NCBI GenBank assembly: GCA_964019335.1 | Contig: OZ025662.1 | Coordinates: forward strand, 682,001-746,000 | From: Diplonema japonicum | Taxonomy: Eukaryota; Protista; Euglenozoa: Diplonemea | Direction: 5' to 3' | DNA: 64,000 nucleotides | Part shown: positions 15,236 to 52,664 of the stretch, piece by piece | Numbering within the stretch: position 1 is the stretch's first letter | How the letters are laid out: each line of letters starts with the position of its first letter | Program-made: the position numbers and the translations under genes | Notes under the pieces: generated by a model | What the model was told of the DNA's origin: nothing | What the model saw: the letters and a program-made list of their open reading frames with translations, nothing else | Databases searched by the model: none

Positions 15236-18200
15236 ATGCAAAGCAGTTTTGCTGGAAAGAAAGGACTGCCCAGCCCAGAAAACCCGCACTTAAAGCTGAC
15301 AGGAGGGGAGATCAACATCTCAAAGGATGACGTGGAGGAGGTGGTAACACTGCTGCAAGGAGTGAAGGAAGGGGGTGGGGGCGACAGGGCGGTAGTGGGG
15401 GCTGTGTTGAGTGCCGCTGCGAAGTTCACGGACCCGCCTACACTGCGGGCGGCTACTGTTAGCTGGCTTGAAAGAAAAAAGAACCCTATGACTGACGAGG
15501 ACAGAAAATTCAGCGATGGCATAGCTAATGCCAAGCCTGCAAACAACCCCAAAGAGGTTGTCCTCACACACTTCTATGACGCAGCCTACACCCCACCCTT
15601 CCCTGTTGAAGAGCTTCACCAGGATATCTCTACGTGGTGCACGCCTACAGGCGAGATCTGGAACAACACTGCCATCAACGACCTGCAGGCAAACTGTAAC
15701 CTCGTCCTCACCCACCACTCCAACAACCAACCCCCCCAGGTCGTCACTCCTCTCTGGCTCTACTCCGCTTCTCAGCTCGGCCGCCACAAGCTCTGGGCCA
15801 CATGGGTCACTCCCTCCGACAACATCGAGGGGGCGCGGTGGAAGGCTGTGCCAGGCAACTTGATCGAGAAATGCATGCAGCCGGACGGCGCACTCCTCCT
15901 CGACCCTTCGTGGATGAAAGCTTACAACTTCCCAGCAGGCTCCATCCCTGCCAGTGTTGCCATGGGCCTGGAGGCTGATCCTTACCCTAGTGAGCTGCGT
16001 GGCGAAGCGTCCGTTGTCGACTTCAGGTGGTCCCACACAGAAACGAAATGCAACATTGCAGCACACAAACATTTCTACCTAGTAAGGTACGAGTGTCTGT
16101 GCCTGGGCAACGGGCAGTGGTCCCCTCTGCACGATGTAGTCATGTGGCTACCAAGGCCTTCTGAAAACGGCCTTGCGATCAATATCGGGGAGCTGCCACC
16201 ATCGGGGGTCTTGGAATACCTGTACAGTAGGGGTGTCGAGGAGGAGATCCTGTGGCCCTTGCAACAGCACGGCTGGACAGCAAAGCTGTGCTACGGTACA
16301 GTCATGGCCATGTTCAGTGCGAAGTGTTTTGCGGAGCCCGACCAGCAGATGTACAACCCTGCCCTCCATGACAGGTTCAAGGACCTTTGCTCCGTGCTGT
16401 TGGGACAGAAAAAGAGCGAAGATGTGAAGCACACATTTGAGTGGTTACTCGACTCACGGGAGGGCAATGACATCAGCAGCATGATGCAGGAGATGGATGC
16501 CCTCTCTGGCATCATCCCTCAAAGCCTCCTCGACGTGAAGTTAAAAGGCAATGCTGACCCTCCGCCGGGTGTTCTGGCACACGCTACGGAAGTACAAGAG
16601 TTGGCATGGGGTGGAAAGAAGTTCCTTGTAGCCCTGTCCGGCGAGCATCCTTGTGTATGCGTCGGTGGCACCGCCTACGAGCTGTTCCGCGTAAACGACA
16701 CGTATGAAGACCAGATCTTCTGGCACATGAACTATGCCATGCGAAGCAAACAGTTCGGGACCGAGACATCGCTCAGTATTAAGGAAGGGCCTGCAGCCGG
16801 AAAGTATCTGCCTCCGCCACAGGAAGAGGTAGCTTCTGAGATCACCAAGTGGAACGATGACTGGGACGGTCAGGACGACGACGACTCTGTTGCAGCCGCA
16901 CGTGCAGCGCCTGTTACATACACCCGTGTCGCACTCCCGCCTTGCACTGCGCAGTGGGACGGCTACACATGGAGCTACTCCCTTGAAGGGTCAGTGCCTG
17001 TAACGCTGCAAAACTTCAATGTTTGGTTGTCACTCGGAACATGGCTGCTACCCCAAGCAATACCATTGATATATTACTTGGACAAAGCGCTGGCAGTACT
17101 TTCTGAGATAGATGGCTGCCGAGCACCAGCCAATCTTGTTGTGTACCGTGGGCTGAGGGGCGTGACCCTTCCGAGGACTGTCTACGACGACAACAAGGTA
17201 GTGCTGTGGTCTGCGTATTCATCCGCATCTTCGGATAGGGGTGTTGCCAGCAGTTTTGCTCGGGGCGAAGCGGCTGCGGCAGTGTTCGCTTTGACGGGTA
17301 AAACATGTGTGTGCATTTCGCACTGGTCCAGGTTCGGAAGGGAACGAGAGTGGCTTTACCCCCCGAACACGACATTTCAAGTGACCTCAACCCTCAGTGA
17401 GGAGCAGGCAAAGATACTAAAATTAGACAAGCTGCAGCTATTCACTATGAATGAGGTCAGTATTCTAGACACCCTCCTCGTCTACTTGAGATCCCTAGTC
17501 AATGTTGTGGCAGCGACTGTGGAGGGTTCTGTCATGCCACGGCACGTGGAACAGATTTTCGGTGTGATGAAGTACCTGACGACAGGAAAGCTCACAGAAG
17601 CTCTGGAAATATGTCTTGATCCAAAATTACCCGTTCTAAAGACGCAGCAAGGTGCAGAGATATGTGGCATGCTGGTACGCATGGGTGCCAACCGCAGTAC
17701 CTTCGCTTCTACCGCCTTGTCTCTAGACGACCCTGATCCTGTGACCTTCATGTACCTCGTGAGGGCTGGTGCCAGCTTTGAAGACGCCCAGCAATGGATG
17801 AGCCATTATGAGACTACAGCGAGGGAGCACGTGATGAACATCGGCATGCTCATCATAAGCGAGACGCTCGAGAGAGCCGACATTCGTGAGGAGTGCTCTC
17901 TTCAGTTCGAAAATACACAACACGAGTACGAAGCTGCCACGAACCTTGCCCTTGGGCACATCACAACGGTAAGCGTCACAAGGTTACACGGGGAGTATGC
18001 ACACATGAACGGGGTCTACACTCTGGATCTTCCGCGTGTTTTCATGTGCCCTGGGTTCCATGAATGCAAGGAGCTGGGCTGGACTCTTGATGCAACACGT
18101 CCGTGGGGCGTCTTTGTTGTGAAAGCCACATCGAGACCTGCATCAACATGGGGACTTACCTCAGGATCCCGCGTAATATCTATGTGCAAAGACGGCGTCG

Positions 18201-21091
18201 AGACCAAGCTGCAGGGTCTCAGTAGTGTCGATGGTATTATCGCTGAACTGAAGGGCGGCTCGCCATCCCCGGTGACGCTGCACATAGAAGAGAAACCGCA
18301 GTATTCTATGATGAACCCGACACGCTTCCTGTCATACTGCACCATCACCCTTGAGCTGAACGGGGAGTGGCGCATTAAAGACGCAGAGCTTAGGCAGAAA
18401 GAATCTGAGAAGCACCCAGATTGGGACACATGGATTCCTGTGGGCAGGTGGAAGGGGAAATATGACAAAACAAGCACTCCATATGAATGGCTGCTAGGGC
18501 AGTGGGCACAGAGGTCACAGCATCAATATCAGTGGTACATAACGGGGCCTGTGACTTCGGCGATCGCTTTGTGTGGCGGTGTGACGGAATACGGCTGGGT
18601 ACACGAGGGGTTGCTGCGGTACACCGTAGAAGAAGATGTAGAGACCATCAAGCCGATCAAAACACTGTACGACGACACACAATTGCTAGAACAGGCCAGA
18701 CACAGCCTCATAGAAATGGAAGAGGGGGACCTCGACACAAGAGAGACTCAAGTGGCTATTCCCAACCTCTTCAAATCCACCAAGGTGCTCCCTGATGGCG
18801 TTCACGCAATGCACCGTGTCAGCGAAGGGTGGGTCCTTGTCAACCACACCACCCTTCTGACGTACACCTTGGAGCGTGTGAGAGTAGAAGGCGTGTACCC
18901 CTATGTGACAGCATGCGACTCTGTAACCACGTGCAAAGACGGCAACACCGTCATGGCACCCAAAGAGGAATCCCTGAAGCGGCAAGGATTCTTCTCCTAC
19001 TCGTTTCAGCCGTACGATGACACCGTTCCCTTCGTACTCAAGGGCATGGGAAACACGAAGAAGTGGACCCCAAGGGATTGTGGCGGCGGCGCGTTCACGT
19101 ATTGCCGAAGCAAGAGTTTCATCGGAGAAAACCGTCCTAAGCTTCTTGAATCGGGAACAGCGAGAATTGTGGGGAGGTGCAAGGTACGCGGGATGGATGA
19201 GAACGATGCATCGGTAGAGGGGTGGAGTGTCGAGGACATGCCGGAGTCGATAGAACTGAGGGACGGAACGGTGGTGAAACCGTGCTGCAACATTGCAAGA
19301 TATGAATGGGACTGGTGGCACGTTGTCGATGTAGAACAGTACAGGAAGAAGGTCAAAGAACCGCGGTTTAGAAACCAAAGCACCGAGTGGTTCAATGCGC
19401 AACAGAAATCAGGGGAAGCTTTTGAAGCACTTCTTAGCAACCCCGACATCGCCCCAATGAAGAAGCACGTCGAGCAGTACGAGAAGAGGATGTTAGTGAG
19501 GAACATCTACACCGCGCAATACATGTGCGATGAGGCGGGGAACATCCCACCAGATCTGCCTGACATCAAATCCCTATGGGATCAGGACAACATGCATAAC
19601 TTGAAGACTGCATTAGAAGAATACGAGGAAGCTGTAAAGCTCGCTGTGAAGAAGCCAGTAAAGGTAGTTGATGAACTGAAGGAATCAAAGGTCGATGAGG
19701 GGGGTACTTTCAGGAGCATTGGGGGCGACACGGGCCTCATCAGTTTGCACATAGGCCAGGCAGGCGTACAGATAGGCGATGCACTGTGGGATCTCTATAG
19801 TCGTGAGCATGAGATTTGCAACACGGATGTAGCTGACCGTGTATCGTCCTTGCTGTTCCGGGAGTTGAGTGATGGGTCTTTTAGGCCAAGGGCGCTCTTC
19901 ATTGACACTGACCCGAGCACGGTGGACAATCTGAAAACTAAATGGTTATTCGACAGTTCTAATTACATTAAAGGAAAGCAATGTTCTAGTGACATTTACT
20001 CCCGTGGTTTTAACTGTGAAGGGAAAGAGATCTTCAACGCCACAGTTGCAGCGCTCAACAGGCAGTTGGAAGAGTGCGACAGAGTCACGGGGTTCCACAT
20101 TACGCATGCTGGCGGAGGCGGCACTGGCGGCGGGTTCCAAAACCTGCTTTCCGAGCTCCTGCAAGTAGAGTACGGCAGGGTGCCAGTTCATAACTTCACA
20201 GTGCTCTCAAATGAGTCGTCCTCCCCTACAGGGGTTTATAATACAATATTCACGTTGGAGAGCCTCCTGTCGCATCAACACAGGATGGTCACGATTTTCG
20301 ATAACGGGAGGCTGCAGAGTATGACTTGTTACATAACCCCCGTTACTCAGAAACCACAGGGTTGTGCGCTACTCGACTGGGTTTGAAGGATGCCACATAC
20401 CATCACATGAACCACATGGTGGCACAGGTATGCCTGGTTGTTTTTACATTCTCTCTAGTTCATGAGCTCCCTGACTTCTTCTATCCGCCTCACGCGAGTG
20501 GTGGGTGACATTAGGTGTGACATAGGCGACACGAACACTTCGCTGGTGCCATATCCAAATCTGAGGTTTACATGCCCTACATTTGTGCCGTGTTTGGGTG
20601 AAAAGGAGGACGAGAGGCCGAGGGTTGAGCAGCTGGTGGTCGAGGCTCACGATCCAAACTGCTGTATGGTGCCCCTGTCGGGCAAACGGAACCTATTCAG
20701 TAGCGCCTTGTACCTAAAAGGAAGAATGGCTCACTGCAACATCCTTATAGCCGCCAATGCTGTGCGCTACTGCGACAGGATGAACGAGATTCCCCCTTGG
20801 TCATCGCGGATAGCTATCTCGCAGGTGCCTCCCAAGTTCGTGCCTGGCTGCGGTATTGCTGCGGTCCCTCGTACCTGTGCGTACCTCCAGAACACCTCTG
20901 GCATCATCAATTATTTCGACAGGTATAGCCACCAGTTTGACCTCCTGTTCAGCAAACGAGCTTTCTGTCACTGGTATTCCAGTGAGGAAGGGAGCTTCTC
21001 CGAGGCGCGGATGAGCGTCGCAGGGCTTGTTAAGGATTATGAGATGTCATTCGACGAGCCTGAGCAAGAGTCCGATGAATGGGAGGGATAA
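15236..21091 (+). CDS. ADP-ribosyltransferase-tubulin fusion protein 1 (~1927 aa)
   Basis: Exons 15236-20318, 20360-20427 and 20459-21091. ART motifs YRG, YSSAS and FGREREWLYPP. Tubulin domain from about 19733: LHIGQAGVQIG, RPRALFIDTDP, GGGTGGG, FDN, LVPYP, KRAFCHWY..EGSFSEAR. Confidence 0.88.
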
Positions 21092-21232
21092 ACTCTGCTG
21101 CTTTTCCAAGCAGGTGTCCATAGTTGTCGGTGCCAACATCATGCTCGGCGCTGTTTTTTCACTCAGCGCTGTTTTTTCATGTATTTTCTTCGCTGTTCGT
21201 ACTTCATTGAGTGTAGCTAACAGGTTTTCGGG

Positions 21233-24200
21233 ATGAAACGGAAGCAGAGCATAACCGCAGGATGCACCAAGGAAGTAAGCGGCATTCTGAAAGGGTTGAA
21301 TGAAGTTGTTGACGATAGCCGTGTGGTGGTGGAGACGCTCCTGGGTGCTGTAGGTGAAGTGGTGGATGGTCATGTAATGCGCAAGAAGGTGGTGTCGTGG
21401 TTTGACGAAAAGGGTGTGGGTGAGGAGGAAGACAAGAAGTTCAGCGATGGGATCGCCAACGCGTCAGAGGCTACTCCCGAGATGCTCTCCACGGTGTCGT
21501 TTTACAATGGCTCCTACGTGCCCAGCATCTCAGGCATCGATCTGTGTGACTCAGTGGGCACCTGGTTCCTTCCTACGCGAGTCCTCTGGAAGCCCGAAAC
21601 GATCACAGACCTCAAAGGCAACTGCAAGATGATGCTAGACCATCACAACTACGGCATGCCCTCCCTCGTTGTCCCCTTTGTTCTGTACTCCGCTTCTCAG
21701 AAAGGCCAGCGGTACGTATGGTCTGTATGGATAGTCCCCCGTGACCCTGAGCAACCAGGAAAATGGAAGTCTGTGAAGTCCGCGGAGCTCGAGGAGGCAT
21801 TTAGCACATCTGGTGGTACCTTCGAACTTGACCCTGCTTGGTTCCCAAAGAAACTGGGTCTGCACTCGAAACACGTGCCCGATGACCCCATCACATTCAC
21901 AGAAGTTGAAGAAGCCTCCCATGCAGAAGGCTTTTCCCTCCATGCGCATTTTGCCTCGCGGTTTGTGCTCGTGCGGTACGCGCTCAAGCAAAGAGGCGCG
22001 CCTCTGTGGAGTCCTGTGCACGATACAATATCCTGGCTCCCGACACCCAACCTTGACACCAACACCTTCACCACGTCAATGAACACCATCCTCCCGCCAG
22101 GCGTTATAGAGTACCTCTACTCCCGTGAGCCTTCACAGCCGATTACTTGGCCTGGGTGGGAAGCTAGCTATGCCCTTGGTCTGCCTGCCGCTGCTCTCGT
22201 GAGTAAGTGCTTTGCAGAACCCAACCAACAGGACTACAATAAGTCGCTTCATGAAGAAGTGCTTGCTCTGGTCGACAGCATCGTGGATGACAACAAAGAG
22301 CAACGCGAGAACATCGGAAACATGCTGGCGTCCTGGGCGCTGAACAACAACGCTACCATCGACGTTCCACATGTGGACGAAGAGTTGGTACGCCCTATGC
22401 TTCGGCAGATTGTTGGGGCAAAGCTGGGGAGGGAGGAGAAACCTCCCCCAGCGATGCTTGCACACTGCCTTGAGGTGCAGAAGGTGCAATGGAACGGTAG
22501 TATTTACCTCGTGGCCTTGTCAGGGAGCAACCCGCTGGTCACATCCACGGACGGAAATGTCTCGGTGGTCTCCCGCATGGCAGACTTGTACGATGACCAG
22601 ATATTCTGGCAGCTGAACAGAGCTATGCGTATGAAACAGTTCGGTGTCGAGCCGCATCTCCAGGTCAGTGCCCCGGACATGAAAGGGAATTACTACTTAA
22701 AAGCAGATGTCCCCAACACTATCGAAGAGTGCGAGGGTTTGGCTTTCCAGCATGACGGCGGTGCAAGGTTAAGCCTGCAACAAGGTTCATGGACGGGGTG
22801 TACACACAATAAACTGCATAGTCGCTTCGTGTGGTTCGAGAGTGGCACATGGCTCCTCAAGCAAATGCTGCCTCTGCAGTATCACATAGACAAGGCTCTG
22901 AAGGAGGCAGGAACCCTCAAGGGATCCAAGGCACCACCTGGACTTACCACATATCGAGGCCTTAAAGATGTTGCGCTGGACAGGTCTATCTATGACACTG
23001 GAAAGGTTGTGCTGTGGGGTGCATACTCGAGTACATCTGGTGACAGGGGTATTGCTGCTGCCTTTGCGCAGACAGACGGTAAAGCTGCAGTGTTCAGTCT
23101 CACAGGAAAGAACTGTGTGTGCATCTCGAAATGGTCTAGATTCGGAAGGGAGCGGGAATGGCTGTACCCCCCGAACTCGGCATTCCAGGTAACATCTTCC
23201 CTGTCAGAGGAGCACGCAGAGCTCGCAGGGAAAAAGGACTTGCAGATCTTTTCGATGAACGAAGTAGACGAGGTGGACGCACTAATCGTATATCTGAGAG
23301 GGCTTGTGAACAAGGTTGTGACACAGGCAAACAACGCGGCGGACGAAGCTAAGAAGATGCCAAGACACGTCGAACAGCTGTTCAAGGTGATGCTGGGCCT
23401 TGTCAAGTACAAGAACACCAAAGAAGACATTGACCTCAACACAGCATTGGCTGCTGTTTGCGAGTATGTCGTCACTTTAGCACACAGCACCCCACAGCCC
23501 TGAGGAACAGGTCTTGTACACAGCAGAGGGTTCTGGTTTATCAAGAAAGCTACTCGCTATGGGTGCTAGCAGGTTCGCCTTGTCAAACATTGCAAGACGC
23601 AAGGTGGGCCCTGTCCCGAACGTGCTGGGGAGGCTCGTCGATGCGGGTGCTCCCTTCGAAGGTGCGAACGGTGCTGTCGGCTGGATGGGCGAGTTCGAGT
23701 CACAAAGCAGGTCGCTGTTCGAGACGGGCGTCAAGCTCCAGAAGCAGCAGCTCGTAAAGTACCTTCACCTCCGTCTGGAAGAGGAACGTGAGTGTAGGAT
23801 CCTCCAGGACAACAACGACAGTCTGCTGCAGGTCACGCAACACGCAGAAGCGCTGTGCGTCTCAGGGTTGTACGGTGATAGGAATTACTACAACGGATAC
23901 TATGTAAGAAACCGCAGCAAGGGGAGAGTGTTCACACAGGTCAGTCCGATCAGGCTCTTGTCGTACTGCGAGATACACTACGACACCAAGAGACAGGGCA
24001 TTGGGGAGTGGCTTCTCACCGACAGCACGACACGGGCACTGCTGTCACGCAACAAAGAAGTTAATTGGTTGTCGGGAAGCTTCAAGCTTGAAGGGCAGTG
24101 GGGTTTGGCCGGTGGGGCCAAGCAAGAGGGAAAAGGGTTCCCATTCGTCACTGTTCTCACAACGAATCCACAGGAGGTGATTTGTGCGAGGCCCGACAGC

Positions 24201-26421
24201 TACGACGAGGAGAAGGAGGAGGTATGTTACCACACGCAGTTCATGCATACAGATGCTGCGGCTGGCTAAAGAGCCGCCCTTACCAAGAGACAGGTACTCA
24301 GATGAAGATGAAGATGAATTTGAAGGGGATGACGGCGACAGCTGGTTTTGGGAAGAGGCTGCCCAGAATGTCGAGAAGCGTCCCCTTAAGCCCGTCACCA
24401 CTGCAGTGGACCAAAACATGCTAAAGGCACCTTCCATGTTTCGCAACTCAAACAGATGCGAGCTGAAAGCCTCCGACTGGGGGGGTACAGGATTCGGCTT
24501 CGAGCATTCTTGGCGGAACGAAAACACTCGCCCACTAGTCGTACGGGCAGGGTTCCTCAGAGCTGTTCATGGGTCAGGATTCAAGTGTGGTGTCTTCAAG
24601 TCGAAGAAAACGTCTAGTAATTGTGTAATAAGCAAAAAAACTTCCAAACCGCTGAGGCACGAGCTTAAACCATGGGAAAGGGAACGCGCCAGCGTACTGA
24701 AAGCTTACGACGCGCTGATGGCAGCAGCGGAAGAAAGTGCAACGCCAGAGGTTGTGCAGATTAAATACCAGTTAGCCGAGAAGAAAAGCATAGCATACAG
24801 GCTGTTTGGTCTTACTGAGAATGTGCACCCTTCGCCTGTGCGTGAACTTTGGCAGAAGGACGATACGGGTGCTGCAATGCAGGAAAAGATTGTTGAAATC
24901 CTCGAGGCTGCTGACCCCGACAGTTTGAGTTTTGAGCAGAGGTTGCTGATGTTTCCAGAGACCATTGAGGCTCTGAAGCGCAAGACGCTGCTGCAGATGA
25001 AGCCGCCGCTGTCTCCTAAGGAAAAGACTGAACTGCCGCCGCTGCCCGACGTGACCCCGTTGGGCGGCAGCAGGGGTATCATCAACATTCACATCGGGCA
25101 AGCTGGGTGTCAAATAGGCAGTGCCTGTTGGGAGCTGTTTTGCCTTGACCACGAGATAGGGATCGACGGCTACCCAGACCCAGAGGCACACGGCGGCGAT
25201 CATGACCCGAGGTACCTTTTCGATGAAAGGAAGAACGGCAAATGGCGGCCAAGGGCGGTGTTTGTGGACATGGACCCGACCGTAGTCGGCAACTCGCAAG
25301 AAGTAAGCCGCATCAACAATGTGGTGCTGAAGGAGAACAACGTCATCGGGAAACAAGAGTGCGGTGACAATTATGCCGATGGCTACTACAGCAACAAACC
25401 GATGCAGGCTGTGGCCATCGATCGGATGAGGAAGCTTTTTGAGGCGTGTGATGTGTCGCTTGGAGTGCAGATCACGCACTCCCTTGGAGGTGGGTGCGGA
25501 AGCGGCTTTGGGAGTGCCATTTTGCACGACCTGAAGGAGTACACCAGAAGGCCCATCCACTGCTACACCGTGATGCCATCACCGAAGGTGTCAAATGGCG
25601 TGACGGAGCTGTACAATTGGGTCTTGGCTGTGCCCGACATCAACGAGGTGGCATCCATGTGTGCCATGTATGACAACGAGTCTTTGTACTTCGCGACGCT
25701 CATGAACATGGGGATGAAGGATCCGAAGTTCACAGACATGAACAGGATAATAGCGCAGTCCCTGTCGTCGGTGACAGCAACCATCCGTCTGAGCTCACGA
25801 ATGTCATTACGCAGCATGGAGCACGTGGGGACGAACCTGTGTCCGTTCCCGAGGACTAATTTCATGACAACTGCCTTCGCACCATTGTTTTCGGCGACGA
25901 AGTGTGCGTTCCCAAAGTCGAGCTTCAAGGCGCTGGCAACTATGGCTTCTGCGGTGCTTCATCCTAGCGGGTCGTTAGTTTCAGTTGATCAGCGGAAGGG
26001 GAAGGCCATTGCAACCTCTTTGAACTTCCGCGGCGATGTGGAACCGAGCGATGCCCTCGCCGTGCTGACCGCCTACAGACAGAACCGCGACATCGTCCGA
26101 GTGGACTACACACCATGCGATATCAAGAGCACCATCTGCAGCAAGCTGCCCATCGTTGCCAAGGGCTCCGCCATGCAGAAGACTACACGCAACATCTCCC
26201 TGCTCATGAACACCACAGCAACAGGAGGCATGATGCAGACATCCTTCAAGCGTGCGAACCAGCTGTTCTGCAAACGTGCCTTTGTCCATTGGTACTGCCG
26301 TGTTGGAATGGAAGAAGGCGAGTTCAGCGAAAAGTTTGAAGGTGTGGCTGCCCTTATTAGGTCTTATGAAGAATTAGGCAAGGAACCAGAATATGAAGAA
26401 GAGGAAGAGGACTACTACTGA
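21233..26421 (+). CDS. ADP-ribosyltransferase-tubulin fusion protein 2 (~1707 aa)
   Basis: Exons 21233-23463, 23498-24221 and 24253-26421. Splicing of intron 1 restores the CDP..VL motif shared with the paralogues. ART motifs YRG, YSSTS and FGREREW. Tubulin from about 25072: IHIGQAGCQIGSACWELFCLDH, GGGCGSG, KRAFVHWY..GMEEGEFSE, tail EEEEEDYY. Confidence 0.88.
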
Positions 26422-26582
26422 CAAAACTACATCAACTGTATCATATGTGGTCGTGTTCCCTTTTACGAGGGGATGTTACTGCTTTTACATCTAATCTATT
26501 ACTTGTGAAATCTTTTTTTTTCTCTTGTTTGTGAAATCTATTATCCTTCGTTGTAGATATTTTTTTCAGTACGGTTGGGAAG

Positions 26583-29500
26583 ATGACAGGCTCCAGGTTC
26601 GCTGCTTCGAAAGAGCTTCCTGTTAAAACGCCTTCAGATGCCATAGCGCAGTTGCTTGATAAGATGAGTGCTTCTGTTGGAGGCGACATGGAGACGGTGA
26701 TTGAAGTGTGTTTAGATGCTTCGTGGCGTGTTGTAGATAGAACGGACACAATCCCACATGCCGCTGTGAAGTGGTTCAAAACAATGAATGAAGACATCGC
26801 TGCTGAGGTGAGCGCCAAGTTCAGCGACGGTATTGCCAATGCGAAGGGTATTGATGCACCAGAACAGATCACGAAACTTGACTTCTACGACCCGCACTAC
26901 GAAGTCCCTGTGGGCATGGACGAGATATACTCATACCTCCAATCCTGGAAAACACCCCTTGGCGCTTCCATATGGGAGTCCACCGCCGTTGGCGACCTTC
27001 AGGCCACAGGGAGCGTCATTGCCGAACATCACCACAGCGAGCAGCCTGAGGATATCGTCCTACCTCTGTACATCTACAGCGCGTCGCAGATCGGGAGCAG
27101 AGTGATCTGGTGCGCCAACATGGATGACAGGAATTGGGAGCTTCTCGACGGGGAGCGCTTTGAGGAGGCCTTCAAGTCAGGCGACACATTTGAGCTGAAG
27201 CGTTCGATGTTCCCCGATCTCTCTGGAAACCTCATCAGGTCAGACTGCGCAATGGTCAAGGTGCCGTCACACCCCAGCGACGACGTGCAGGCATTCCAAA
27301 CGCTCACTTCGTCAGACGAGCATGTCACCATAGTGCGCTACGAGCACTCCAAAAGGGGTGATTCGCTACTGGGGCCATACAGCGACACGGTGAGCTGGCT
27401 ACCGTTTCCTAGCATTGAACATCAGTTCCAAGTGCCCCTTACTAGCATGCCGTCATCGGGTATTTTGGAATATCTCTACTCCAGAGGCGCAGAGGAAACT
27501 GTCTCCTGGCATCCCGAGTGGTCATCCAGATTTGCCCTTGGCCAGGCCATTGAGATGCTGATCAAGGTCTTGTTTGCAGTGACAGACCAGCAGACATTCG
27601 ACTTGAAAATGTACAGGCACTTCACCATACTTATAGAGAGCTTGCTGGGCACGCCGGAGGAACGCAGGAAGAGGGAAGACGACATGAAACAAGTGCTAGT
27701 GGAGATGGTGTCGGAGGGGGCGAGCGACAGCAGCAGCCTGGGCCACGCCGCGTCGGTATCGGCGATACGGCTGTTCATAGGCTCCGGGCAGTTCATCTCC
27801 GAGCTAGCATTCCCACCAGCTGTGGTGAAGAAGCTTATCAACGCAAAGCTAGGCAGCAACCCTGAGCCGTCTCCAGCACTTCTAGCACATTCGCTTGAAA
27901 TCCAAGAGCTGCGGTGGTGTGGCAAGAAATACCTCTTGTCCTTGTCGGGAGAACGTAAGTATCTCATCACCGAAAACGGCGAGCTGGCAGAGGTCTTCCG
28001 CACTAACAACCCGTTCCCCGACCAGGTATTCTGGCTCTTGAATGCTGCAATGCGACACAAGCAATTCCAGACGCCCACAAAGCTGGAAGTTTACTCGGCC
28101 CGCCATCGAGGCGACTACGTGTACTGTCCTAACACAAAGGAATGGACAATGAACGGTGTCGCGGCAGTGCACAAGGAAGGGGAGTGGAGTGTTAATGGGG
28201 ACATTCTCGAGAAGAATCAGTACTGGCTTCAGATGGGGTCTTTTATGGTGCCGCAGGTGACACCCCTGATTTATTGGCTGGACAGAGCCCTGCGTGCTAT
28301 AGACGAGAAATGCGAGAAGCCCCAGACGTACCGCGGTCTGAAGAACGTGACACTGCCAAAGGAAGTATATGACAAGGACAAGGTTGTGTTGTGGTCTGCT
28401 TACTCGTCCTCCACTTCTGACAGGGGCGTAGCGAGCTCTTTTGCTAAGGACGACGGCCAAGCTGCGATTTTCGCGCTGCACGGAAACACTTGCGTCTGCA
28501 TCTCACCGTGGTCGAGGTTCAGCAGGGAGAGGGAGCTGCTCTTCCCCCCGAACTCGACCTTCCTCATCAGCGCCTCCCTCGATGAGACGCAGCAAGAGAT
28601 CTTGGGCGTTGCTAACCTGCAGCTCTTCAGCATGAAGGAGGTCGACCGTTACGGTGCAATGGTTGTCTACCTGCGCAAGGTGGTGAATCACGTAATCAGC
28701 ACTGTGCAAGCAGCAATGGTGCCGGTGCACGTCAGGCAGCTATTCAAGATCATGAGATGCTTTGAAAAACATGATCTAGATGGTGCTTTGGAACACACGT
28801 GTGACCCAGATGAGCCTGTGCTCGGCACTCCTGAGGGCGTGGCACTGGCACGCATGCTCATAGACATCGGTGCCGACCCTGGGGTACGCACAAAGGTGGC
28901 GATGAGGTCGCAGGATGCTTCGGTGGAATCGTTGTCGCAGCTGGTGATGGCGGGGGGCTCTTGGGCGGATGCCTTTGAATGGGTGTTGATGTACGAGAAG
29001 CAGAACAGGGAGGCCATCGACAGCCTGTGTACTTTTCTTGGTGACTCTATTTTGAAGCATGAAGGATTGCTGGTATCTGAGCAGTCTGAGTTTGAGATGC
29101 TTTTAAGCGGTGTCTGGGACAGAGTCGCAACCTCTGATTCAGAGCACTTCGTGCCTCAGGTCACTGTGACGGGTCTCAAAGGGAAGGCTTCTTATCTCAA
29201 TGGGCTGTATGCGAGACTCGATGCGAATAGTGCCGCAAAGATGGGGCTGCACCCTGAGAAAACTTTCGCGAAGGTCGCCACAAGAGTAAACTCTTGGGCA
29301 CACATATCGTACAACGAGCACCACGATTGCTGGTTTTTGGATGATGCCTACATGAAAGAATGCAGGCAGACTCGAGGCGAAGCAAGCGAGGCTGTGGCAT
29401 TCATGTGGCCGCCGCCATTTCGTGCGAGGCCTGTGAATATGTGTTTGCTGGGAAAGTGGATGGATGGGTTTTGTGTGATCTTTTCTAAGCCTGCGGTGCC

Positions 29501-32500
29501 GAAGGACAAGCAGGTGGCGTGGACGGATCAGGACCTGGCCTCGTTCGAGGGGTTGGATGAAGATGTGGACAGCGGGACTGTCGAGCGGTTCAAAGCAAAT
29601 GGGCCGCAGCAGTGTAGTGAAGATTCACGTGTAAAGCTGAACAGGCACAGCGCAAAGCCTTGGTGGAATGGCGGGACAAACTTCAAAATCCAGACAACAA
29701 TCCATGAGCAGGACCTGGTGGAGCTCCGTTTGGGGAACAGCGTGCGTCGTTTGGTAAGCCATTCATACGGACGCGGCTTTGCGATGGGCATAGCACATGA
29801 TAAACGAAAGACATACGCACGCACCCCTGGCAGAGTTGAGCAGTCCGTTAACCTGAGCCGCGGGGAGCTGCCTTTCAACAAGCACTTGGCCGAAGGCTGG
29901 GAAGCTTTCCAACTGCTGCTAACCGATGAGAAGCACCGCGAGATTACAGAAAAGATCAAAAAGCGCGTATCGCTACTGGAGGGCAGAGTCCCACCAAATG
30001 ATTGTTGCAGCAACATAAAAACTTCGTTTTCGACGCCGGCTAAATACGAGCGAAGGGCGAGGCTGAGGACCGACGAAACGACGTGTCCCTCAGCCCTTGA
30101 GATCGTGGACGGGATAGGGTGCGGGTTGTACAAGATGAAGTCTGAACTGTGCTATGAAACAGAGGCAGGGTTCAAGTTTTTCAAGAAAGACGAAGAAAGC
30201 AAATGGCTGCTGAAGGTACCCGAGAGTGTTGTAGACTATCAGATGTTGCTGAATGCCACAGTCGAGGCTGTCAACGATAACGAGCTCAAGACGTACCTGG
30301 AGGAGACAGAGGCACAGAAGACTGAGGCTATTAAAGCACTTCGGTCGTGGGATGGCGACCTGTGTTGCAGTTTTTCCAGCCAACGCACCGGCTTGCTGAG
30401 CCGCAACATCGTAGAGCTCCTTGACATCTGCAGGTTGGACAACAAGGAGGATACCGACGCTGAGGACTACTCAGATGTGGTGCGAATGTTCCAAGACGAC
30501 GCAGAGGCTACCATCAAGAGTATGTGCTGTGCATGAAAGAAAAAGAGAAAATAAAAGAGTTGCTGCCGCTGTCCAGAGTAATCGAAGCAAAGGCGCACAT
30601 CCTGAAGCACCAAAAGCAGAACATGCCAGGCATAGACGACAAGTCTCTGGACTGGATTGAAGCACTGCGGGTTGTCATGAACATCGCAAGGACCACGAGC
30701 GACAAGAACGGCGAGGCTGCCGAGGTATTATGTTTGTGCTTTACCTATCACACATCAGCATGAACATGTGCGCGAATGTGACATCATTCCTGCAGATGGC
30801 ATTCTTGTAAGGAGCACGAGGCAAGTGGGTGCTGCAAACCCCACGTGCGCCATTGTCGAAGGGTGGACAGGGAGTGATTGGGCTTCCGTTGCGCCACCTG
30901 TCTCTAAGGTATCTTTATCTTTATCTATGATGCTTCCAGGTGCCGAACCTCCTGAGGGTCACAGGCGAGGCTGCCGTGGAGGGGAGCTACACAAGCTTTT
31001 ACGGCGAAGCCTGGGTGGACCACGCCACTGGCAATGTAATGGATTTGCGTCACGACTACTACGTGTTCTGCGACAAGCACGGCAGCGAGCTTCTCAGGAG
31101 CAACGTGCAAAAGTACGGCAGAGCAGCCGAGGACATCAAGTCATGGGCGGTGAAGAAAGGTGAGGAATGGGAAGAGGTGATGCACGTGGCAGTCGAGAAG
31201 CCTGTACGTGTCGTGAGCATGCATGGGACACTAGCTGCACGCGGCGGGGACATCATAACCATAGGCGTAGGGCAGGCAGGTGTGCAGATCTGCGAGTCGC
31301 TCTTGTCACTTTACAGCATCGAGCCATCAGGCGTGTCTGCGTACCACAACTGCTTGTTCAACGTGACAGAAAGCGCTGCCCTGTCACGGGCTCTGCTGAT
31401 CGACACCGATGACATGGTCCTCAACACGCTGAAAAGAAAGAGGTACAACTTCTTGTCAGACGAGAACTTCTATTCATTGAACTCACGGGACAGCGTGACG
31501 TGGGAACGAGGCAGAGGCCTGTACCGTGAAGAGGTCCTAGAGGCCGTACAGAAACACCTGGAAGCTGCTGACCGAATAGCGGCTATTCATTTTGTCCACG
31601 CAGTAAGCGGTGGCACAGGTCCTGCTTTGACAGAGAGAATCATTCAAGAGATGGGGTGCAAAAAGATAACAAAGAAGGCTTTCCCCATTTTCCCCTCACC
31701 CGTCAACGCTTCTTTAGACACACAAGTTGCACCGTACCATGCGTGTCTTTACTACGCAGGGATGTCTACCTTGTGCGACCTAATCGTCCCCTTTGACAAC
31801 GAAAGCATGCGCAGGGTCCTTATCAGCAGGACAGATGCAAGGAGGCCACTGTTCGGTGATTATAACGAGATTGTGGCGAATGTAGTGTCGGCGTGCTCCG
31901 ACAGCATGCGGCACGACGGGCCTATCTCGGTCAACCCCACAGGCATCACGCAGGGTTTGGTGCCGTACCCGCAGCTGCGTTACGCGTGGGCGGGACTTGC
32001 TCCAATGGTAGAGCATCGCGCGAACAAGCTATCGCTGAACTCGCTGGCGTTGAGTGCCTTGTCCGCACCTCTCACGGGAGCCGACTACATGAAGTCTACG
32101 ATGTCAGTGGGGCTATTCATGCGTGGCCCGAATATCGAGGCAAGCAAGGCGCACATCACGAGCTACAACCTGAATTATGTTAGAAAAGGCAGGCAGTACC
32201 TCCCTGTAGCAGACTGGTCCCCCTGCAGCAGGTTCCTTTCTGTGTGTCACGCGCAGCCGCCGAAGCCACTGCACAGCTTTACTTTGCGCGACAGAACCGT
32301 GACGACGCTGACGTCGGGACTCGGTATCACAGTGCCAATGCAACAGATCAAAAGGTCGTTCAATCTTCTGATGAACCAAAGAAGTTACCTGCACTGGATG
32401 ATCAAAGACGGGATGGAGGAGGATACACTCAAACAGGCGGGTGACAGTACTACAAGCCTCATCAAAGAGTACAAAAACGCATGCGCAGAGCCAGATTACT

Positions 32501-32505
32501 TCTGA
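26583..32505 (+). CDS. ADP-ribosyltransferase-tubulin fusion protein 3 (~1939 aa)
   Basis: Proposed exons 26583-30519, 30558-30724, 30759-30908 and 30940-32505; the first acceptor is an AAG and is less certain. ART motifs YRG, YSSST and FSRERELLFPP. Tubulin from about 31243: IGVGQAGVQI, RALLIDTD, SGGTG, FDNES, LVPYP, RSYLHWMIKDGMEE. Confidence 0.78.
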
Positions 32506-32578: not shown

Positions 32579-35500
32579 ATGATCCTTGATGTTCTGGTAG
32601 CAATTTCATTGATCTCCGTCGCAGTCGCGCAGTACACCTTCGTTGCTGACCAGTGGTGCCTCACACACGATGATTGCAGGGAGTATGGCAGATTTCCTGA
32701 TTTGGGAGCGACATGCGAGCAGGGTAGGTGCTACTGTACTGACAGATATGAGTACATAGGAGAAGGCCTCTATCACTGCGCGCACAAAAACAGTACCGGG
32801 AACACGTATTCTTACATGTACAGCTGGGTGTTCCCCAACGGTGACTGCACAGCTGTGGACGCCAATGTGAGAGCGCACGTTGCCAACGTGTTCAGCATGG
32901 TATTCGGAGTGGGGCACAAGGTGTCGTTGGAATTTTATGTGTGCGCCAACGATACGACACCTGTGTTCCACACGCGTGGCACCTTTGATGCTACAGACCC
33001 CATGGGTTCCATCTCCCTCAGCGACATGGTGACGATCGCACTACGCCTCATCAGCAACAACTCCTACCTCTCGGACTTGACAACCGCACTTCAGTTCTCC
33101 TCTGCAAGCGATGTCATTGCATCCCGTGCAATAGTAGGTGCCTTGTGCACTGTTCCAAACACAGTCAAGACGGTTGAAATCTCGGGCACCTGTCACTCCA
33201 TCAAGTGCTCAAACGACTACGGCCTCTCTATTGTGAACAACCAGCAGGTCTGCGTCGGTAACGATGACTCTCTTGCAGCAACAGACATTGTTGGCATCTT
33301 GTTTGCTGGGCTCATCGGTTGTGTGATCTGCTGTGTGCTGTGCTGCTTGTGCTACACGGGGTACACGAAGAAGGACAAGGTCGTCTACTACGAAGATAAG
33401 CTTGAGAACACACCTCTGTCACGGGAGCCCATCTACGACCCCTACAACCCAAGGTCCACCACACCCATCGATGGCCCCCTAGGGTCAGCATCTCCAGGGT
33501 CGACAGTGCCCCACGGACAGGTGGCAAGACAGCATGCCATGGCTCACGGTGTCTTAGGAGCACCATACAAGTCAGGGGACCGCGCCATGCCGGGCTTTGA
33601 AAGGCCAGGCCCTGACGGAAGGTTCTTAGATGGCACATTCGCTGCTCTGGGTCCTGATGGTAGGTTTCCGGATGGCACGTATGGGTGGCCTAAGCCCGAT
33701 GGGAGGTTTCACAATGGTATCTACGCTCAGCCCAGTCCAGACGGCAGGTACCCTGATGGTTCGTTTGCAAAGCCCGGCCCCGATGGCAGATGGCCTGATG
33801 CATGCTTAGGTCCTGACGGGAGGTACCCAGATGGTTCTCAACCCGGCCCTGATGGCGTGTATCCTGACGGTACAGTCGCAAGACGTGGTCCTGATGGCAG
33901 GTATTATGACCCACGGCCATATGCTGATGGTAGAATCCCTGATGGCACCTTTCTGAAGCCAGGCCCCGATGGAAGGTACCCAGACAGCATGCTGCCGGGT
34001 CCCGGGGGAAGGTACCCTGATGGCACCATAGCCATGCGTGGCCCCGATGGCAGATATTACGACCCACGCCCGTACGGTGGCCAGCATGCTGGTCTCAATC
34101 GCACTCTGCCAGAGCTGGGCCCTGGTGGAAGATACCCCGACGGTGCTCAGCCGGGTCCAAATGGTCGGTACCCTGATGGGACGCTAGCAATGATGGGGCC
34201 AAACGGTAGGTATTACGACCCCAGACCATATGCTGATGGCACCTACCCTGATGGAACAGTGATGCCTGGGCCTGACGGGAGATACCCAGATGGCAGCTAT
34301 GCGCAGCCTGGTCCTGACGGCAGGTATCCTGATGGTACATATGCAAAGCCAGGTCCCAATGGTCGGTACCCTGATGGTTCATACGCGATAGGCCCCGATG
34401 GTCGGTACCCTGATGGCGCCCAGCCTGGTCCTGATGGAAGGTACCCCGACGGCACAATGGGCAGGCTTGGTGCTAATGGAAGGTACTTTGACCCCAGACC
34501 ATATGCTGATGGCACCTACCCTGATGGCACGATAATGCCTGGGCCTGACGGGAGATACCCAGATGGCAGCTATGCGCAACCCGGTCCCGACGGTAGGTAT
34601 CCTGATGGAACAATTGCGCTGGTGGGTGTTGACGGAAGATATCCTGATGGGACGTATGAAAAGAAATCAGGTGTCCCTTCTGGGAGTCGTGGTGTCCCTT
34701 CTGGAAGTCGTGGTGTGCCAGGCAACGACGGTGGACACCCCAGTGGTACTCGTGTTCCTGGCGGCTTTGGTTATGCAGCAGCAGTGTTAGGCCCTGATGG
34801 TAGGTACCCCGAAGGCACTGAGCCTGGTCCGGATGGCAGGTATCCGGACGGCACAGTTGCGCAGCGTGGCCCTGACGGCAAGTACTTTGACCCCCGTCCT
34901 GCTGGTGGCAGCAGAGGCCTTGGAAGCAGGCAAGGCCCCGACGGGATGGCTGCTACGAGCGGTTCACGCAACGTGCCAGGCTCACCTGAGATGTCGACGT
35001 CAGCGAAGACAAATACTTTAATGGGGGCTGGTGTAGGGGTGTTGGCGGGTGGTGCTATGGGTGGTGCGTTGATGAGTAATAAGAAAAGTGATAAAGAAAA
35101 AGACAAGCCAGAGGGGCTCATATATCCAGACGGCGACGGGCCACTAATCAAGTCGCGGGACGAGATGAGGAGCAGTACGGGCATGGCTCCAAACACCACC
35201 CCCACCAGGGAGAGGAAGTCACCCATGTCCAACCCTTCTAACACCTTCCCAGGCAGCCAGCGCCCATCGGCCAGGTCAATCGAGCCGTTGGACTCGAACG
35301 ATGACTTGCCGCGCTTTGGCAGCGATCCCTCTCCTCCATACCCAGTAGGCTCTAGTGGTAATAATGACCAGGGTGTGGATTTCGCAGCTATGCTTGCAGG
35401 GGCAGGAGTGGGCATGGCTGCGGGAGGTATTGTAGGGGCGGCTGCTGCTGGGGCAGCTGAAAAAGGGAGCTCACGAAGAGGCTCGGATGCAGACAGAAAA

Positions 35501-36856
35501 GGTGCGGAAGAAGGGACAACCGATCCAAGGGGAGCCAAGCAGTCCGAACAAGGTTCTGCTAGACACGTCACGGAGGGGGCGAAGAGCGCGGCACTGCCTG
35601 GACAGACAGCAGGTCTCGCAGCTCAGCAGGCGTCCGCAGGACATAGCGCTGCAAACAGCCCCGCGAAGGGCAGTGAACAGGGAGACCAAGGTCGCCTGAC
35701 AGAGGCGCACCGGGCTACGTCCGCATCTTCCGGACTGCCGTCTCTCTCCACGGAACAGAAAGTGGCTGGCGCCACAATTCTCGGAGCGTTGGCCATGAGC
35801 AAGGCTAGGAAGGAGTTCAAGAAAGATGTAAAAAACTACAGAGATTCTGAGAAAGATCGAAGGTATTAATATAATTCAAAGGTTGCATTCATCCAACCAC
35901 AGGGACTGGCTGGCAAAAGGGAAGTCTGGGTCCATCGGGATGAACATGGACAGGGACATGAGGGTATGTTTTAAGGTGGAAATACTCTACTACCGACAGG
36001 TACTTGCGCTTGTGAGCAATGGAGCAGGGGTGCAGGCAGGGGTGGAGGTAGGTGACTTGATTCTGCAGATCGAGAGCATCCAGAAGGGCGGGGGGTGGGT
36101 AAAGATCCCGGTGCCCAATAGGGGGAGGTTCTTGGAGTCGGTGGGGCCTCAGAGCGAATTGTTCGCAGGGCGGGACGTGAAGATCACGCTGATCAGAGAC
36201 CAACGTGAGCAGAGCAAGTGGAAGGCAATGAACCACCGTGCGCCGAGAAAGGGGTTCCAGCCAGACACCATCGTGTGGAACAACGCGATTGATGGCGCGA
36301 AGCACATGGTGGTGGAGGCAAAGCTGCAGGACGAAAGCGACAGGGTGATGGTGACACGGGAGAAGAGGATGCAACACATCAAGGAACAGAAAGGACTGAA
36401 ACAGATGGACATAGGACTCATCACTGACATTTTGTATGGAAAAGCAAGTAAAAAAAAAGAAATGTTTACAACTAAACAGGAACAATCCTCCAGCGGCCAG
36501 GGAGTACATACGTAGGGTCTTCACCAAGGCTGATGACTCCCACAAGGGTAAAATAGGACTCACTGGGCTGGTGTCTGTGTGCACTGATGTGGCAATTGCT
36601 ACTGGCTGCCCACCCCCTGGTAAGGAGGATTCCCAACGTCTGTTTGACTCTATAGACACCAAGCACGACGGGTATGTGGAAAATAGTAACAAAGAAAAAG
36701 TATTTTTGTTTTTCTTTTCACAGAGCTGTTTCGTTTGACTTGTTCTTCCCTTACTTCCGACTTTACCAGATCAAGACTATAGCCAGGCACCATGAAACGA
36801 TAGAGTATGTGAAGGGGGGGGGAAAAGAAAAAAGAGGGGTAAACAAATACAGGTAA
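32579..36856 (+). CDS. Type I membrane protein: signal peptide, Cys-rich ectodomain, TM, cytoplasmic GPDGRYPDG repeats, PDZ-like domain and EF-hand pair
   Basis: Introns 35863-35902, 35964-35999, 36434-36479 and 36672-36723 join ORFs 32579, 35883, 36436 and 36674 in frame. PDZ-like GSIGM..VLALVSNGAGVQAGVEVGDLILQI; EF loops DDSHKGKIG and DTKHDGAVSFD. Confidence 0.7.
33605..34895 (+). repeat. Coding tandem repeat (P)GPDGRY(P/Y)DG, several dozen units
   Basis: Visible in the translation. Larger block duplications also occur, e.g. YYDPRPYADGTYPDGT(V/I)MPGPDGRYPDGSYAQPGPDGRYPDG twice. Confidence 0.9.
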
Positions 36857-42579: not shown

Positions 42580-43563
42580 ATGGAGAGCGTGGTGCCCGCA
42601 GTGCTGGCAGGCGTGGCGGAGGCAGTCACAGTGCAACCGCTGGACATGGTGAAGACGCGGATGCAGCTCAGCACTGTGAGGATAAGCATGCGGCAGGCTG
42701 GGTTGGAGGTGTGGCACAGGGGTTTCGGGGGCTTCTACCGAGGGGGCGGGGTCGAGATGGGGAGCATAGTGGTTGCAAGGGGGACGTGCTTCCTAGTGTA
42801 CGATGCTCTGGAGCTGCTTGGGGCACGCAATGAAGTGGTGAAGGGGGCAGTGGCTGGGGGCGTGGAGGCTGTGGTTGTGACGCCATTGCAGGTGGTGAAG
42901 GTGAGGATGCAGAGCAAGGCATTTTTGACTAAGTACCAAAATCCCTACCAATGTACTATGCTGACTCTGAAAGAGGAAGGCCCACGTGCTTTCGCATCAG
43001 GCTTGCAGGCAACCATCCTACGGAATTGCGTGTGGACTGCTGGCTACTTCTCGCTGATGGCGCAGCTCACTTTCCTTCCAATTTCCGTCTCAGGCTTCGT
43101 GGCAGGTGCTGCCTCTGCTGCCTTGAACGCACCCTTTGACGTCATCAAATCCGTCCAGCAGGAGGCTGTGCACAAGCAGTCTGTCTTCAAGACTGCTGCC
43201 GCCATCCTCGCACACGGGGGGCCCCTAGGCCTGTACAAGGGTGTGCTACCCAAGATCCTCCGCATGGGGGTTGGGGGGTCGGTGAGTATAACAATGTTGA
43301 AGTACGCTAAAACCTTTTTTGAAGTTTGCTTTTTTTCGCGACACGAACAAACTATATCAAATGCACAAAAACAGAACCTAAAGAAAAAAGAAAAAGATCT
43401 TAACAAACACAATGATGCAGCCCATGCAGTTCGTGATGCCCCAGCAAATGATGCAGCAGCAGATGTTGCCCCAACAGATGATGCAGCAGCAGATGATGCC
43501 TCAACAAATGGTGCAGCAGCAGATGATGATGGTTGCAACCCCGGTATGTTGCACAAGCCGTAG
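42580..43563 (+). CDS. Mitochondrial carrier protein (SLC25; resembles oxodicarboxylate carriers); the true stop is probably near 43330-43400
   Basis: Three carrier signatures: PLDMVKTRMQ, PLQVVKVRMQ and PFDVIKSVQQ. The ORF tail beyond about 43325 overlaps the next gene and is doubtful. Confidence 0.85.
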   Translation: MESVVPAVLAGVAEAVTVQPLDMVKTRMQLSTVRISMRQAGLEVWHRGFGGFYRGGGVEMGSIVVARGTCFLVYDALELLGARNEVVKGAVAGGVEAVVVTPLQVVKVRMQSKAFLTKYQNPYQCTMLTLKEEGPRAFASGLQATILRNCVWTAGYFSLMAQLTFLPISVSGFVAGAASAALNAPFDVIKSVQQEAVHKQSVFKTAAAILAHGGPLGLYKGVLPKILRMGVGGSVSITMLKYAKTFFEVCFFSRHEQTISNAQKQNLKKKEKDLNKHNDAAHAVRDAPANDAAADVAPTDDAAADDASTNGAAADDDGCNPGMLHKP

Positions 43564-46321: not shown

Positions 46322-46601
46322 CCCATAAAGGGCCGCTGTTTTTGGTCTAAAAAGTCGATTTTGAACTTTTCGTTCTGACAATAATAAATGGCAAAGGGTG
46401 GAGTTATAAGGTGTCTAACCATAAGATTGCGCCCTTTAGCCATTCTGCCCACCCGCGATAGCCTCTTAATAGGGCCGCTCTGTATAGCACTAAAGATGCC
46501 TTAGCAGAATTAAAAAGTTTTTTGCGGGCCGTTGCTAACCACTTCGTTCCTATCATGGTGAATTTTTTTTTGACTGATAAATTAACTCCAGTCCTTTATG
46601 G

Positions 46602-46602: not shown

Positions 46603-46659
<57 letters not shown>

Positions 46660-52631: not shown

Positions 52632-52664
<33 letters not shown>

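Follow-up and report, generated by a model that had tools for sequence, protein, structure and literature searches.

Three Tandem Genes Code for Fusions of an ADP-Ribosyltransferase to a Tubulin

Throughout the window, which is the whole stretch of 64,000 nucleotides of Diplonema japonicum analyzed here (contig OZ025662.1, positions 682,001 to 746,000), 19 open reading frames (ORFs) of at least 300 amino acyl residues, counted from stop to stop, are encoded on the forward strand and none on the reverse strand. Three tandem paralogues on the forward strand, coding for proteins of 1,707–1,939 amino acyl residues, share a common architecture consisting of an N-terminal domain without family name (about 550 residues), an ADP-ribosyltransferase (ART) domain, a linker, and a C-terminal tubulin derived from α-tubulin. 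The interval considered in an initial annotation corresponds to the tubulin ends of these three genes; the ART fusion partner, which was not named there, carries more weight. In each of the three genes, the ATG directly follows a pyrimidine-rich tract with an AG, which together with the one-stranded coding would fit a euglenozoan with trans-splicing.

15236..21091, forward strand: gene 1, 1,927 residues, assembled from ORFs, spliced model open with a single terminal stop
20319–20359 and 20428–20458, forward strand: introns of gene 1, the first skipped in a contig of run X1, the second predicted
17063..17431, forward strand: ART domain of gene 1 (Pfam ART, E 3.1e-13)
17144, 17213, and 17339, forward strand: Arg, Ser, and E-x-E motifs of this ART domain
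19727..21091, forward strand: tubulin domain 1, 430 residues, two introns (Pfam Tubulin, E 7.5e-38)
20528..20530, forward strand: codon 254 of copy 1 (Asp)
21233..26421, forward strand: gene 2, 1,707 residues, architecture as in gene 1
23464–23497 and 24222–24252, forward strand: predicted introns of gene 2, GT-AG, frame-restoring
22877..23209, forward strand: ART domain of gene 2, triad intact (Pfam ART, E 1.5e-07)
25069..26421, forward strand: tubulin domain 2, 450 residues (Pfam Tubulin, E 4e-40)
25819..25824, forward strand: codons for Glu253 and His254 of copy 2, that of His254 at 25822
26583..32505, forward strand: gene 3, about 1,939 residues, architecture as in gene 1
30520 to about 30557, 30725–30758, and 30909–30939, forward strand: introns of gene 3, the second joined across in X1
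28254..28589, forward strand: ART domain of gene 3, triad intact (Pfam ART, E 1.1e-08)
31243..32505, forward strand: tubulin domain 3, 420 residues (Pfam Tubulin, E 1.3e-24)
31942..31944, forward strand: codon 254 of copy 3 (Gly)

Removal of GT-AG introns of 31–41 nucleotides gives one frame per gene. For the first intron of gene 3, four acceptors preserve the frame, so its 3′ end is approximate, and the middle exon of gene 2 resembles the linkers of its paralogues. Sequencing run X1 from a close relative, taken to be RNA only by guess, skips 20319–20359 exactly and joins across 30725–30758 (one contig each, depth 3–4); these two of the seven introns are therefore supported by X1 contigs and the other five are inferred. 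Assembly frameshifts were considered as a cause of the broken frames and rejected, because four DNA runs belonging to two studies gave contigs (one of which may be the source of the window) that do not differ from the window and because of the X1 joints. In gene 1, the ART domain and the GTPase domain of the tubulin lie within a single uninterrupted ORF.

Among the nine ART-bearing sequences of the family, the aromatic-x-x-E-x-E signature of the ARTT loop is present in all and the Arg motif in eight, the ninth sequence being cut before the Arg, and the Ser motif was aligned in four rows. The domain thus has the Arg, the Ser motif, and the catalytic Glu of R-S-E (ARTC-type) enzymes as well as a Glu at the sixth place of the ARTT loop, as in the arginine-type loop defined in PMC7827354, and by its motifs it is a putative NAD:arginine ADP-ribosyltransferase of the R-S-E class. 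Its best solved match is Tre1, which modifies FtsZ at Arg174 (PMC8120803), although the match is weak (E 7e-4) and says nothing on the substrate.

The Fusion Is Conserved in Relatives

Genes 1, 2, and 3 find their matches in P0001, P0003, and P0122, respectively, and all three of these proteins are encoded on one ENA contig of 648,286 bases, which suggests that the three-gene set is kept in another organism. ART and tubulin occur in a single called protein in P0001, which departs from the tubulin reading frame at an intron position of copy 1 and hence contributes no residue 254; as a partial sequence it was omitted from the tree. P0123 (1,730 residues), the orthologue of gene 3, and P0218 (1,718 residues) each combine the ART with a whole tubulin in one called protein, whereas P0198 begins within the ART and ends in the tubulin. 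These last three originate from three further contigs, so that fusion relatives are found on four other contigs (contigs being counted, not genomes). A EukProt sequence, P0124, carries the N-terminal domain and the ART and gave no tubulin match; its label Hpha presumably denotes the diplonemid Hemistasia phaeocysticola. Each word-based search for relatives scored only about 8,000 candidates, and the family range is therefore a lower bound. Pattern matches in metagenome contigs (381), viral contigs (115), and prokaryotic genome contigs (63) included no confirmed relatives. Pfam and NCBIfam named no family for the N-terminal domain or the linker, and in a protein atlas the leads for the N-terminal part all scored under 0.9, with no usable match for P0123.

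The fusion is conserved in relatives, and it is this fusion family, rather than the loss of a residue, that constitutes the finding. In the literature searched, which took in few subscription journals, no report of an ART-tubulin fusion was found, and the accessible portions of a tubulin survey (PMC4202323), of two diplonemid papers (PMC13615690 and 10.1101/2024.08.06.606595), and of PMC3417536 do not mention one. Annotation tables of the diplonemid genome papers may list these proteins.

Seven tubulin domains of the family, i.e., copies 1–3 and those of P0003, P0123, P0218, and P0198, were compared. Paralogous tubulin domains are only 22–30% identical to one another. Between X1 and the window, 49 differences occur; among the 40 that were listed, those in the tubulin domains amount to 19 silent and 9 replacement codons and those in the upstream parts to 5 and 6, respectively. 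As there are about three replacement sites per silent site, the excess of silent changes suggests that the tubulin domains are under purifying selection.

Placement of the Fused Tubulins

By sequence and tree, α-tubulin is the closest tubulin subfamily, as far as the references used allow. In three PDB searches, one per copy, all 60 matches shown in each are α chains. The initial annotation had proposed a phylogeny of the tubulin superfamily for distinguishing α from δ-, ε-, and ζ-tubulins, and in a tree of 38 hand-chosen rows (7 family domains, 10 canonical α, 12 divergent α, 5 β, 2 γ, 1 named ε, and 1 unnamed) the family is situated on the α side with a support of 96/94; this tree contains one ε and no δ or ζ references, and long branches may contribute to the grouping. 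The seven family domains come together as a single, weakly supported group (80/83). With the two γ references as outgroup, the family does not group with γ-tubulin and falls beyond β on the α side, and the single named ε forms a long branch outside the α-side group. Identity of the family to α-tubulin amounts to 23–39% and to γ-tubulin to 21–26%, and in the case of copy 3 and P0123 sequence identity by itself does not distinguish α from the other subfamilies. A fold search did not resolve the subfamily either, as β, α, and BtubA were tied at Z 53.2, 53.0, and 52.9; δ and ε are absent from its list, which excludes nothing.

Residue 254, the T7 Loop, and the GAP Function

Residues were numbered against 95 α-tubulins, 94 of which possess E254. 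In agreement with the initial annotation, copies 1, 2, and 3 carry Asp, His, and Gly at residue 254, whose counterparts in P0003, P0123, P0218, and P0198 are Ser, Asn, Cys, and Cys, respectively. E254 thus occurs in none of the seven family domains, N249 is lost in all seven, D251 is kept in three including copy 1, and insertions in the T7 loop are present in five. Taking N249, D251, and E254 together, only 3 of 21 residues match α-tubulin, and no family domain has the full α-type set of GAP residues. Domain 1 has kept D251 and has D254, N101D, a T7 insertion of three residues, and an acidic tail. Domain 2 is characterized by S251, E253, H254, N101D, T145C, a T7 insertion of one residue, and an acidic tail with terminal Tyr. 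Domain 3, the most divergent copy (25% identical to α-tubulin), has N251, G254, N101V, and a short tail. Loss of the T7 motif GxxNxD had been claimed for copy 2 and is found there, but N249 is lost in all three copies, being replaced by Arg, Ser, and Ser.

A Glu at position 254 had been named beforehand as the observation that would speak against the loss. For copy 2, one of the three HMMER alignments shown sets a Glu on 254 and two set His there. In a predicted model of copy 2 (pLDDT 89), which was built from an alignment of 96 rows including 93 α-tubulins and thus leans towards an α fold, helix H8 starts right after the Ser that replaces D251, favoring the assignment Glu253/His254; a single-sequence prediction for domain 2 had a pLDDT of 32. 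The counterpart residues in the orthologue P0003 are N253/S254, and Glu253 is Val in X1 (single contig of depth 3.4, possibly an error). A conserved catalytic Glu at 254 of copy 2 was therefore rejected, and since its counterparts are Asn in the orthologue and Val in X1, this Glu is no conserved substitute, so that the claim of loss stands for copy 2.

Both D251 and E254 have been named as catalytic (PMC10319017), and the replacement E254D slows hydrolysis fourfold in human tubulin (PMC7018511). The statement that the GAP residue is lost is correct in that E254 occurs in none of seven domains, but copy 1 keeps the acidic pair D251 and D254. The prediction of nucleotide binding without GAP activity accordingly has good support for copies 2 and 3, in which neither 251 nor 254 is acidic, and for the family as a whole. 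As worded, it is not supported for copy 1 in view of its acidic pair and the modest effect of E254D, even though the T7 loop of copy 1 contains three extra residues. From the loss of E254 it had been concluded that these domains act as caps, poisons, or decoys rather than as polymer subunits; this does not follow, because stable microtubules are formed by tubulins with E254A or E254N (PMC8764682).

How ordinary such losses are can be judged from 149 representatives scored with an α profile, 100 of which are near full length and outside the family. Of these, 54 are divergent α-like tubulins, some of which may be pseudogenes or poor models. Among these 54 stand-alone tubulins, E254 is kept in 25 and missing in 29, 21 have neither Asp nor Glu at this position, N249 is kept in 24, and N206 and N228 are kept in all 54. 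A retained pocket combined with loss of GAP residues is, as judged from these alignments, a common state among divergent α-like tubulins, and the loss of E254 is ordinary and has precedent; for these reasons the loss alone matters little. Other long tubulin fusions among the representatives, with Ig, 7TM, RVT, or ion-channel parts, contain near-canonical tubulins and look like gene-model chimeras.

Nucleotide Pocket and Contact Faces

Conservation was scored over the seven family domains at positions that are at least 90% conserved in α-tubulin, using assumed lists of pocket and face positions based on tubulin structures. The family rows are related to one another, and p-values are indicative only. 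Against a background of 682/1624 matches to the α consensus (42%), 32 of 35 guanine base contacts (Q11, A12, Q15, N206, and N228) and 44 of 49 T1/T4 contacts (including G143–G146) are kept as in α-tubulin, and the GQAG.Q, DN, and glycine motifs are present as quoted in the initial annotation. In the T3 loop (residues 98–101, D98-A-A-N101 in α-tubulin), however, only 4 of 28 residues match and the α-type loop is lost. N101 is missing in six of seven domains, being Asp in copies 1, 2, and P0003 (and also in P0001) and Val in the copy-3 pair, and is kept in one. As the other plus-face positions match in 57 of 119 cases, the earlier view of a retained GTP-binding face holds for the pocket and not for the face; both halves of its heading, a retained face and a lost GAP residue, are overstated, as only the pocket is kept and copy 1 is partly acidic. 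From these alignments, the nucleotide pocket, which is predicted to be buried, is kept and the surrounding face is near background.

The minus face (T7/H8) matches at 61 of 168 positions, and its difference from the plus face is slight (p 0.052, rows not independent). Stand-alone divergent tubulins tilt likewise (59% on the plus vs. 47% on the minus face), and therefore the tilt is not special to the fusion. Nevertheless, the minus face of the family is more worn than that of these stand-alone tubulins (61/168 vs. 386/816; p 0.011, rows not independent). H11′ (residues 401–407), a surface contacting the next tubulin, is kept at 36 of 49 positions, and of 12 lateral-contact positions 3–5 are kept. 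Acidic tails occur in copies 1 and 2, P0003, and P0218. The α-type insert of the S9–S10 loop has full length in copies 1, 2, and P0003 and is shortened in copy 3 and P0123.

Possible Role of the Fused Tubulin

Tentatively, and without holding it for established, we favor the reading that the tubulin domain is a nucleotide-bound docking module devoid of GAP activity which brings the ART to tubulin or to the minus ends of microtubules. Very probably the domain is folded and has GTP or GDP bound in a structural role. Probably it is not a regular lattice subunit, because of the T7 insertions, the worn minus face, and the 1,250–1,500 residues attached to its N-terminus, which in tubulins is situated at the minus (T7/H8) face, the side from which the cargo would leave. 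That it localizes the enzyme to tubulin seems somewhat favored. Docking through the nucleotide face, either on β-tubulin as α-tubulin does or on α-tubulin as γ-tubulin does, is conceivable but doubtful; our confidence thus falls in the order of fold and nucleotide, non-lattice state, localization, and nucleotide-face route. With such docking, only the last position of a protofilament at the minus end would be available, and D251 and E254 might not be under selection because no GTP would lie below a terminal domain there. γ-Tubulin binds α-tubulin at minus ends (10.1101/2023.11.20.567916), and both γ references have Gly at position 254. The predicted target of the ART would be an arginine, possibly on tubulin or on a microtubule-bound protein. 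A cap or poison at the plus end was ranked low, since landing there needs the T7/H8 face, which is the more worn one (61/168).

Counting for the docking reading are the fusion in one frame and in called proteins of relatives, the ART motifs, the retained pocket and H11′, the loss of GAP residues, the T7 insertions, the model of pLDDT 89, the excess of silent changes, the position on the α side of the tree, the binding of γ-tubulin at minus ends, and the match to Tre1. Counting against it, the difference between plus and minus face is weak and is seen in stand-alone divergent tubulins as well, the loss of T3, which belongs to the nucleotide face, makes an ordinary α-β contact less likely, and D251 survives in three of seven domains. 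In addition, the Hpha relative without tubulin match indicates that the enzyme module can exist alone, the model made from 93 α-tubulins is biased towards an α fold, and the Tre1 match is weak. In its most far-reaching form, which we regard as speculative and rather unlikely, a diplonemid α-tubulin would have turned into a targeting domain, i.e., a pseudo-α restricted to minus ends that ADP-ribosylates arginines of tubulin or its partners. If so, a eukaryotic tubulin would be the writer of a microtubule modification and at the same time a minus-end cap independent of γ-tubulin.

An unlikely alternative, for which the restriction of strong conservation to the buried pocket speaks, is that the tubulin domain serves as an internal nucleotide sensor or scaffold controlling the ART of the same chain and makes no contact with microtubules. 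Neither longitudinal face clearly exceeds the background of 42%, one lying near and one below it, the T3 loop at the γ-phosphate is altered (N101 being Asp in 3/7 and kept in 1/7), and the paralogous domains have diverged to 22–30% identity. Yet H11′ is kept at 36 of 49 positions, copies 1 and 2, P0003, and P0218 still have acidic tails, and free tubulin monomers normally require a partner to stay folded. To a still lesser degree we consider that the proteins are rare GAP-dead α isotypes, present sparsely in stable arrays, which carry the enzyme into the lattice and stabilize it. Such stabilization by a GAP-less isotype was proposed for Toxoplasma α3, whose Glu253/His254 pattern is that of copy 2 (PMC10056924), tubulins with E254A, E254N, or E254D polymerize and stabilize microtubules (PMC7018511 and PMC8764682), copy 1 has D251 and D254, and the feeding apparatus of diplonemids is elaborate and microtubule-based (PMC13615690). 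The minus face, however, is less conserved than in matched stand-alone divergent tubulins (61/168 vs. 386/816; p 0.011, rows not independent), and the T7 insertions, the few lateral-contact positions kept (3–5 of 12), and the very large N-terminal cargo also speak against it.

Equally improbable is a conflict system with the tubulin domain as decoy or bait: it would catch an effector directed at tubulin by a symbiont, virus, or prey, whereupon the ART would respond. R-S-E ARTs are typical conflict enzymes (PMC8120803), tubulin domains are contained in prokaryotic conflict systems (PMC7159879), and there are three tandem, fast-diverging paralogues. But another organism apparently has the three-gene set on a single contig (P0001, P0003, and P0122) and the tubulin domains show fewer replacement changes than expected, so that housekeeping fits better than an arms race, and no domain for secretion or delivery was found by Pfam or NCBIfam. 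Finally, an identity to α-tubulin of only 23–39% and five of seven introns being inferred could have meant that the tubulin parts are functionless, decaying passengers or gene-model artefacts. This is largely refuted and very improbable, as the fusion exists in one ORF and in relatives, the contigs of the four DNA runs do not differ from the window, the pocket is kept, and 19 silent stand against 9 replacement codons.

Comparison With Known Systems

Eukaryotic α-tubulins are, to our knowledge, stand-alone polymer subunits. The fused domains have in common with canonical α-tubulin the guanine pocket, the glycine loop, much of H11–H12 and, in copies 1 and 2, the acidic tail. In contrast to the stand-alone protein of about 450 residues, however, they form the C-terminal domain of proteins of 1,707–1,939 residues, are 23–39% identical to it, have lost N249 and E254 in all seven cases and N101 in six, and carry T7 insertions in five. 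A conserved family with α-tubulin at the C-terminal end of a large enzyme would mean that the fold has been reused as a targeting or regulatory module.

Toxoplasma α3, with T251, E253, and H254, is the closest precedent for copy 2, which similarly has lost D251 and has His254 and a Glu shifted to 253, and slow or absent GAP activity was already proposed for it (PMC10056924). As described in that source, α3 differs in being stand-alone, its C-terminal tail is long and an enzyme domain is absent, and the shifted Glu is not retained in the orthologue of copy 2. γ-Tubulin likewise lacks the catalytic Glu, both references sharing Gly254 with copy 3, and its seat at minus ends via the nucleotide face has the geometry proposed here (10.1101/2023.11.20.567916), a functional resemblance that would be analogous only, as the family does not group with γ-tubulin and is 21–26% identical to it.

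With the R-S-E mono-ADP-ribosyltransferases (Pfam PF01129; Tre1, PDB 6DRE/6DRH) the ART domain shares the Arg, the Ser motif, and the aromatic-x-x-E-x-E loop. Tre1, to which the match is weak (E 7e-4), modifies the tubulin homologue FtsZ. Whereas Tre1 is a secreted bacterial effector with a separate immunity protein, the ART considered here is encoded in a large intron-containing eukaryotic gene and has the tubulin in the same chain. The family therefore allows a direct test of whether arginine ADP-ribosylation regulates eukaryotic microtubules, as modification by Tre1 does for bacterial FtsZ. Prokaryotic conflict proteins (PMC7159879) resemble the family in that a tubulin fold is one domain of a larger protein, but those described in the accessible part of that work are bacterial FtsZ/tubulin-like proteins with coiled-coil or helical domains, are not derived from α-tubulin, and include no ART fusion. 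As far as the literature searched shows, what is new in the present family is the ART-tubulin architecture; the loss of E254 is real but already known elsewhere.

N-terminal domain and other features of the window

The three tandem genes, in which an ADP-ribosyltransferase (ART) is joined by a linker to an alpha-derived tubulin domain (copies 1-3), begin with a conserved domain of about 550 amino acids, for which Pfam, NCBIfam, and the protein atlas gave no assignment.

15236-17060: N-terminal domain, gene 1
21233-22870: N-terminal domain, gene 2
26583-28250: N-terminal domain, gene 3

The same domain precedes the ART in P0124, a relative labelled Hpha, for which the domain search gave no tubulin match.

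Other features were located by Pfam searches, an ORF scan, and GC content.

1297-3912: reverse transcriptase ORF (RVT_1, E 4e-26, Pfam)
32579-35869: ORF of 1,096 amino acids (ORF scan and Pfam)
43533-44432: ORF matching SpoVS over two stretches (E 1e-19, Pfam)
46000-56000: low-GC stretch (35-38% GC)
59820-63389: Cache-domain ORF (weak match) and leucine-rich-repeat ORF, near each other (Pfam)

The first is probably a retroelement. The 1,096-residue ORF, for which the Pfam search returned no family, has a hydrophobic N-terminus, numerous Pro-Asp-Gly repeats and likely one membrane span. The SpoVS family takes its name from bacterial sporulation, and its ORF sits here within a eukaryotic gene cluster. 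Long ORFs are absent from the low-GC stretch, which lies inside the one-stranded cluster.

T3 loop and C-terminal tails of the tubulin domains

19991: position 101 codon, copy 1
25366: position 101 codon, copy 2
31495: position 101 codon, copy 3
21050-21091: acidic tail, copy 1
26380-26421: acidic tail, copy 2

Alignment to alpha-tubulins shows that Asp replaces the T3-loop residue N101 in copy 1, copy 2 and the orthologues of both, whereas copy 3 and its partner P0123 carry Val there. Speculatively, an acidic residue 101 might confer GDP preference or pair with beta K254.

Outside this family, the fluke alpha-like tubulins P0136 and P0157 (964 and 1,052 amino acids) retain D251 and E254, with His at 249; their C-terminal extensions exceed 500 amino acids and gave zero Pfam matches.

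In copy 3 and P0123 the tail is short and its last residue is Phe. Copies 1 and 2 retain the acidic tail, which in copy 2 ends in Tyr, as in alpha-tubulin.
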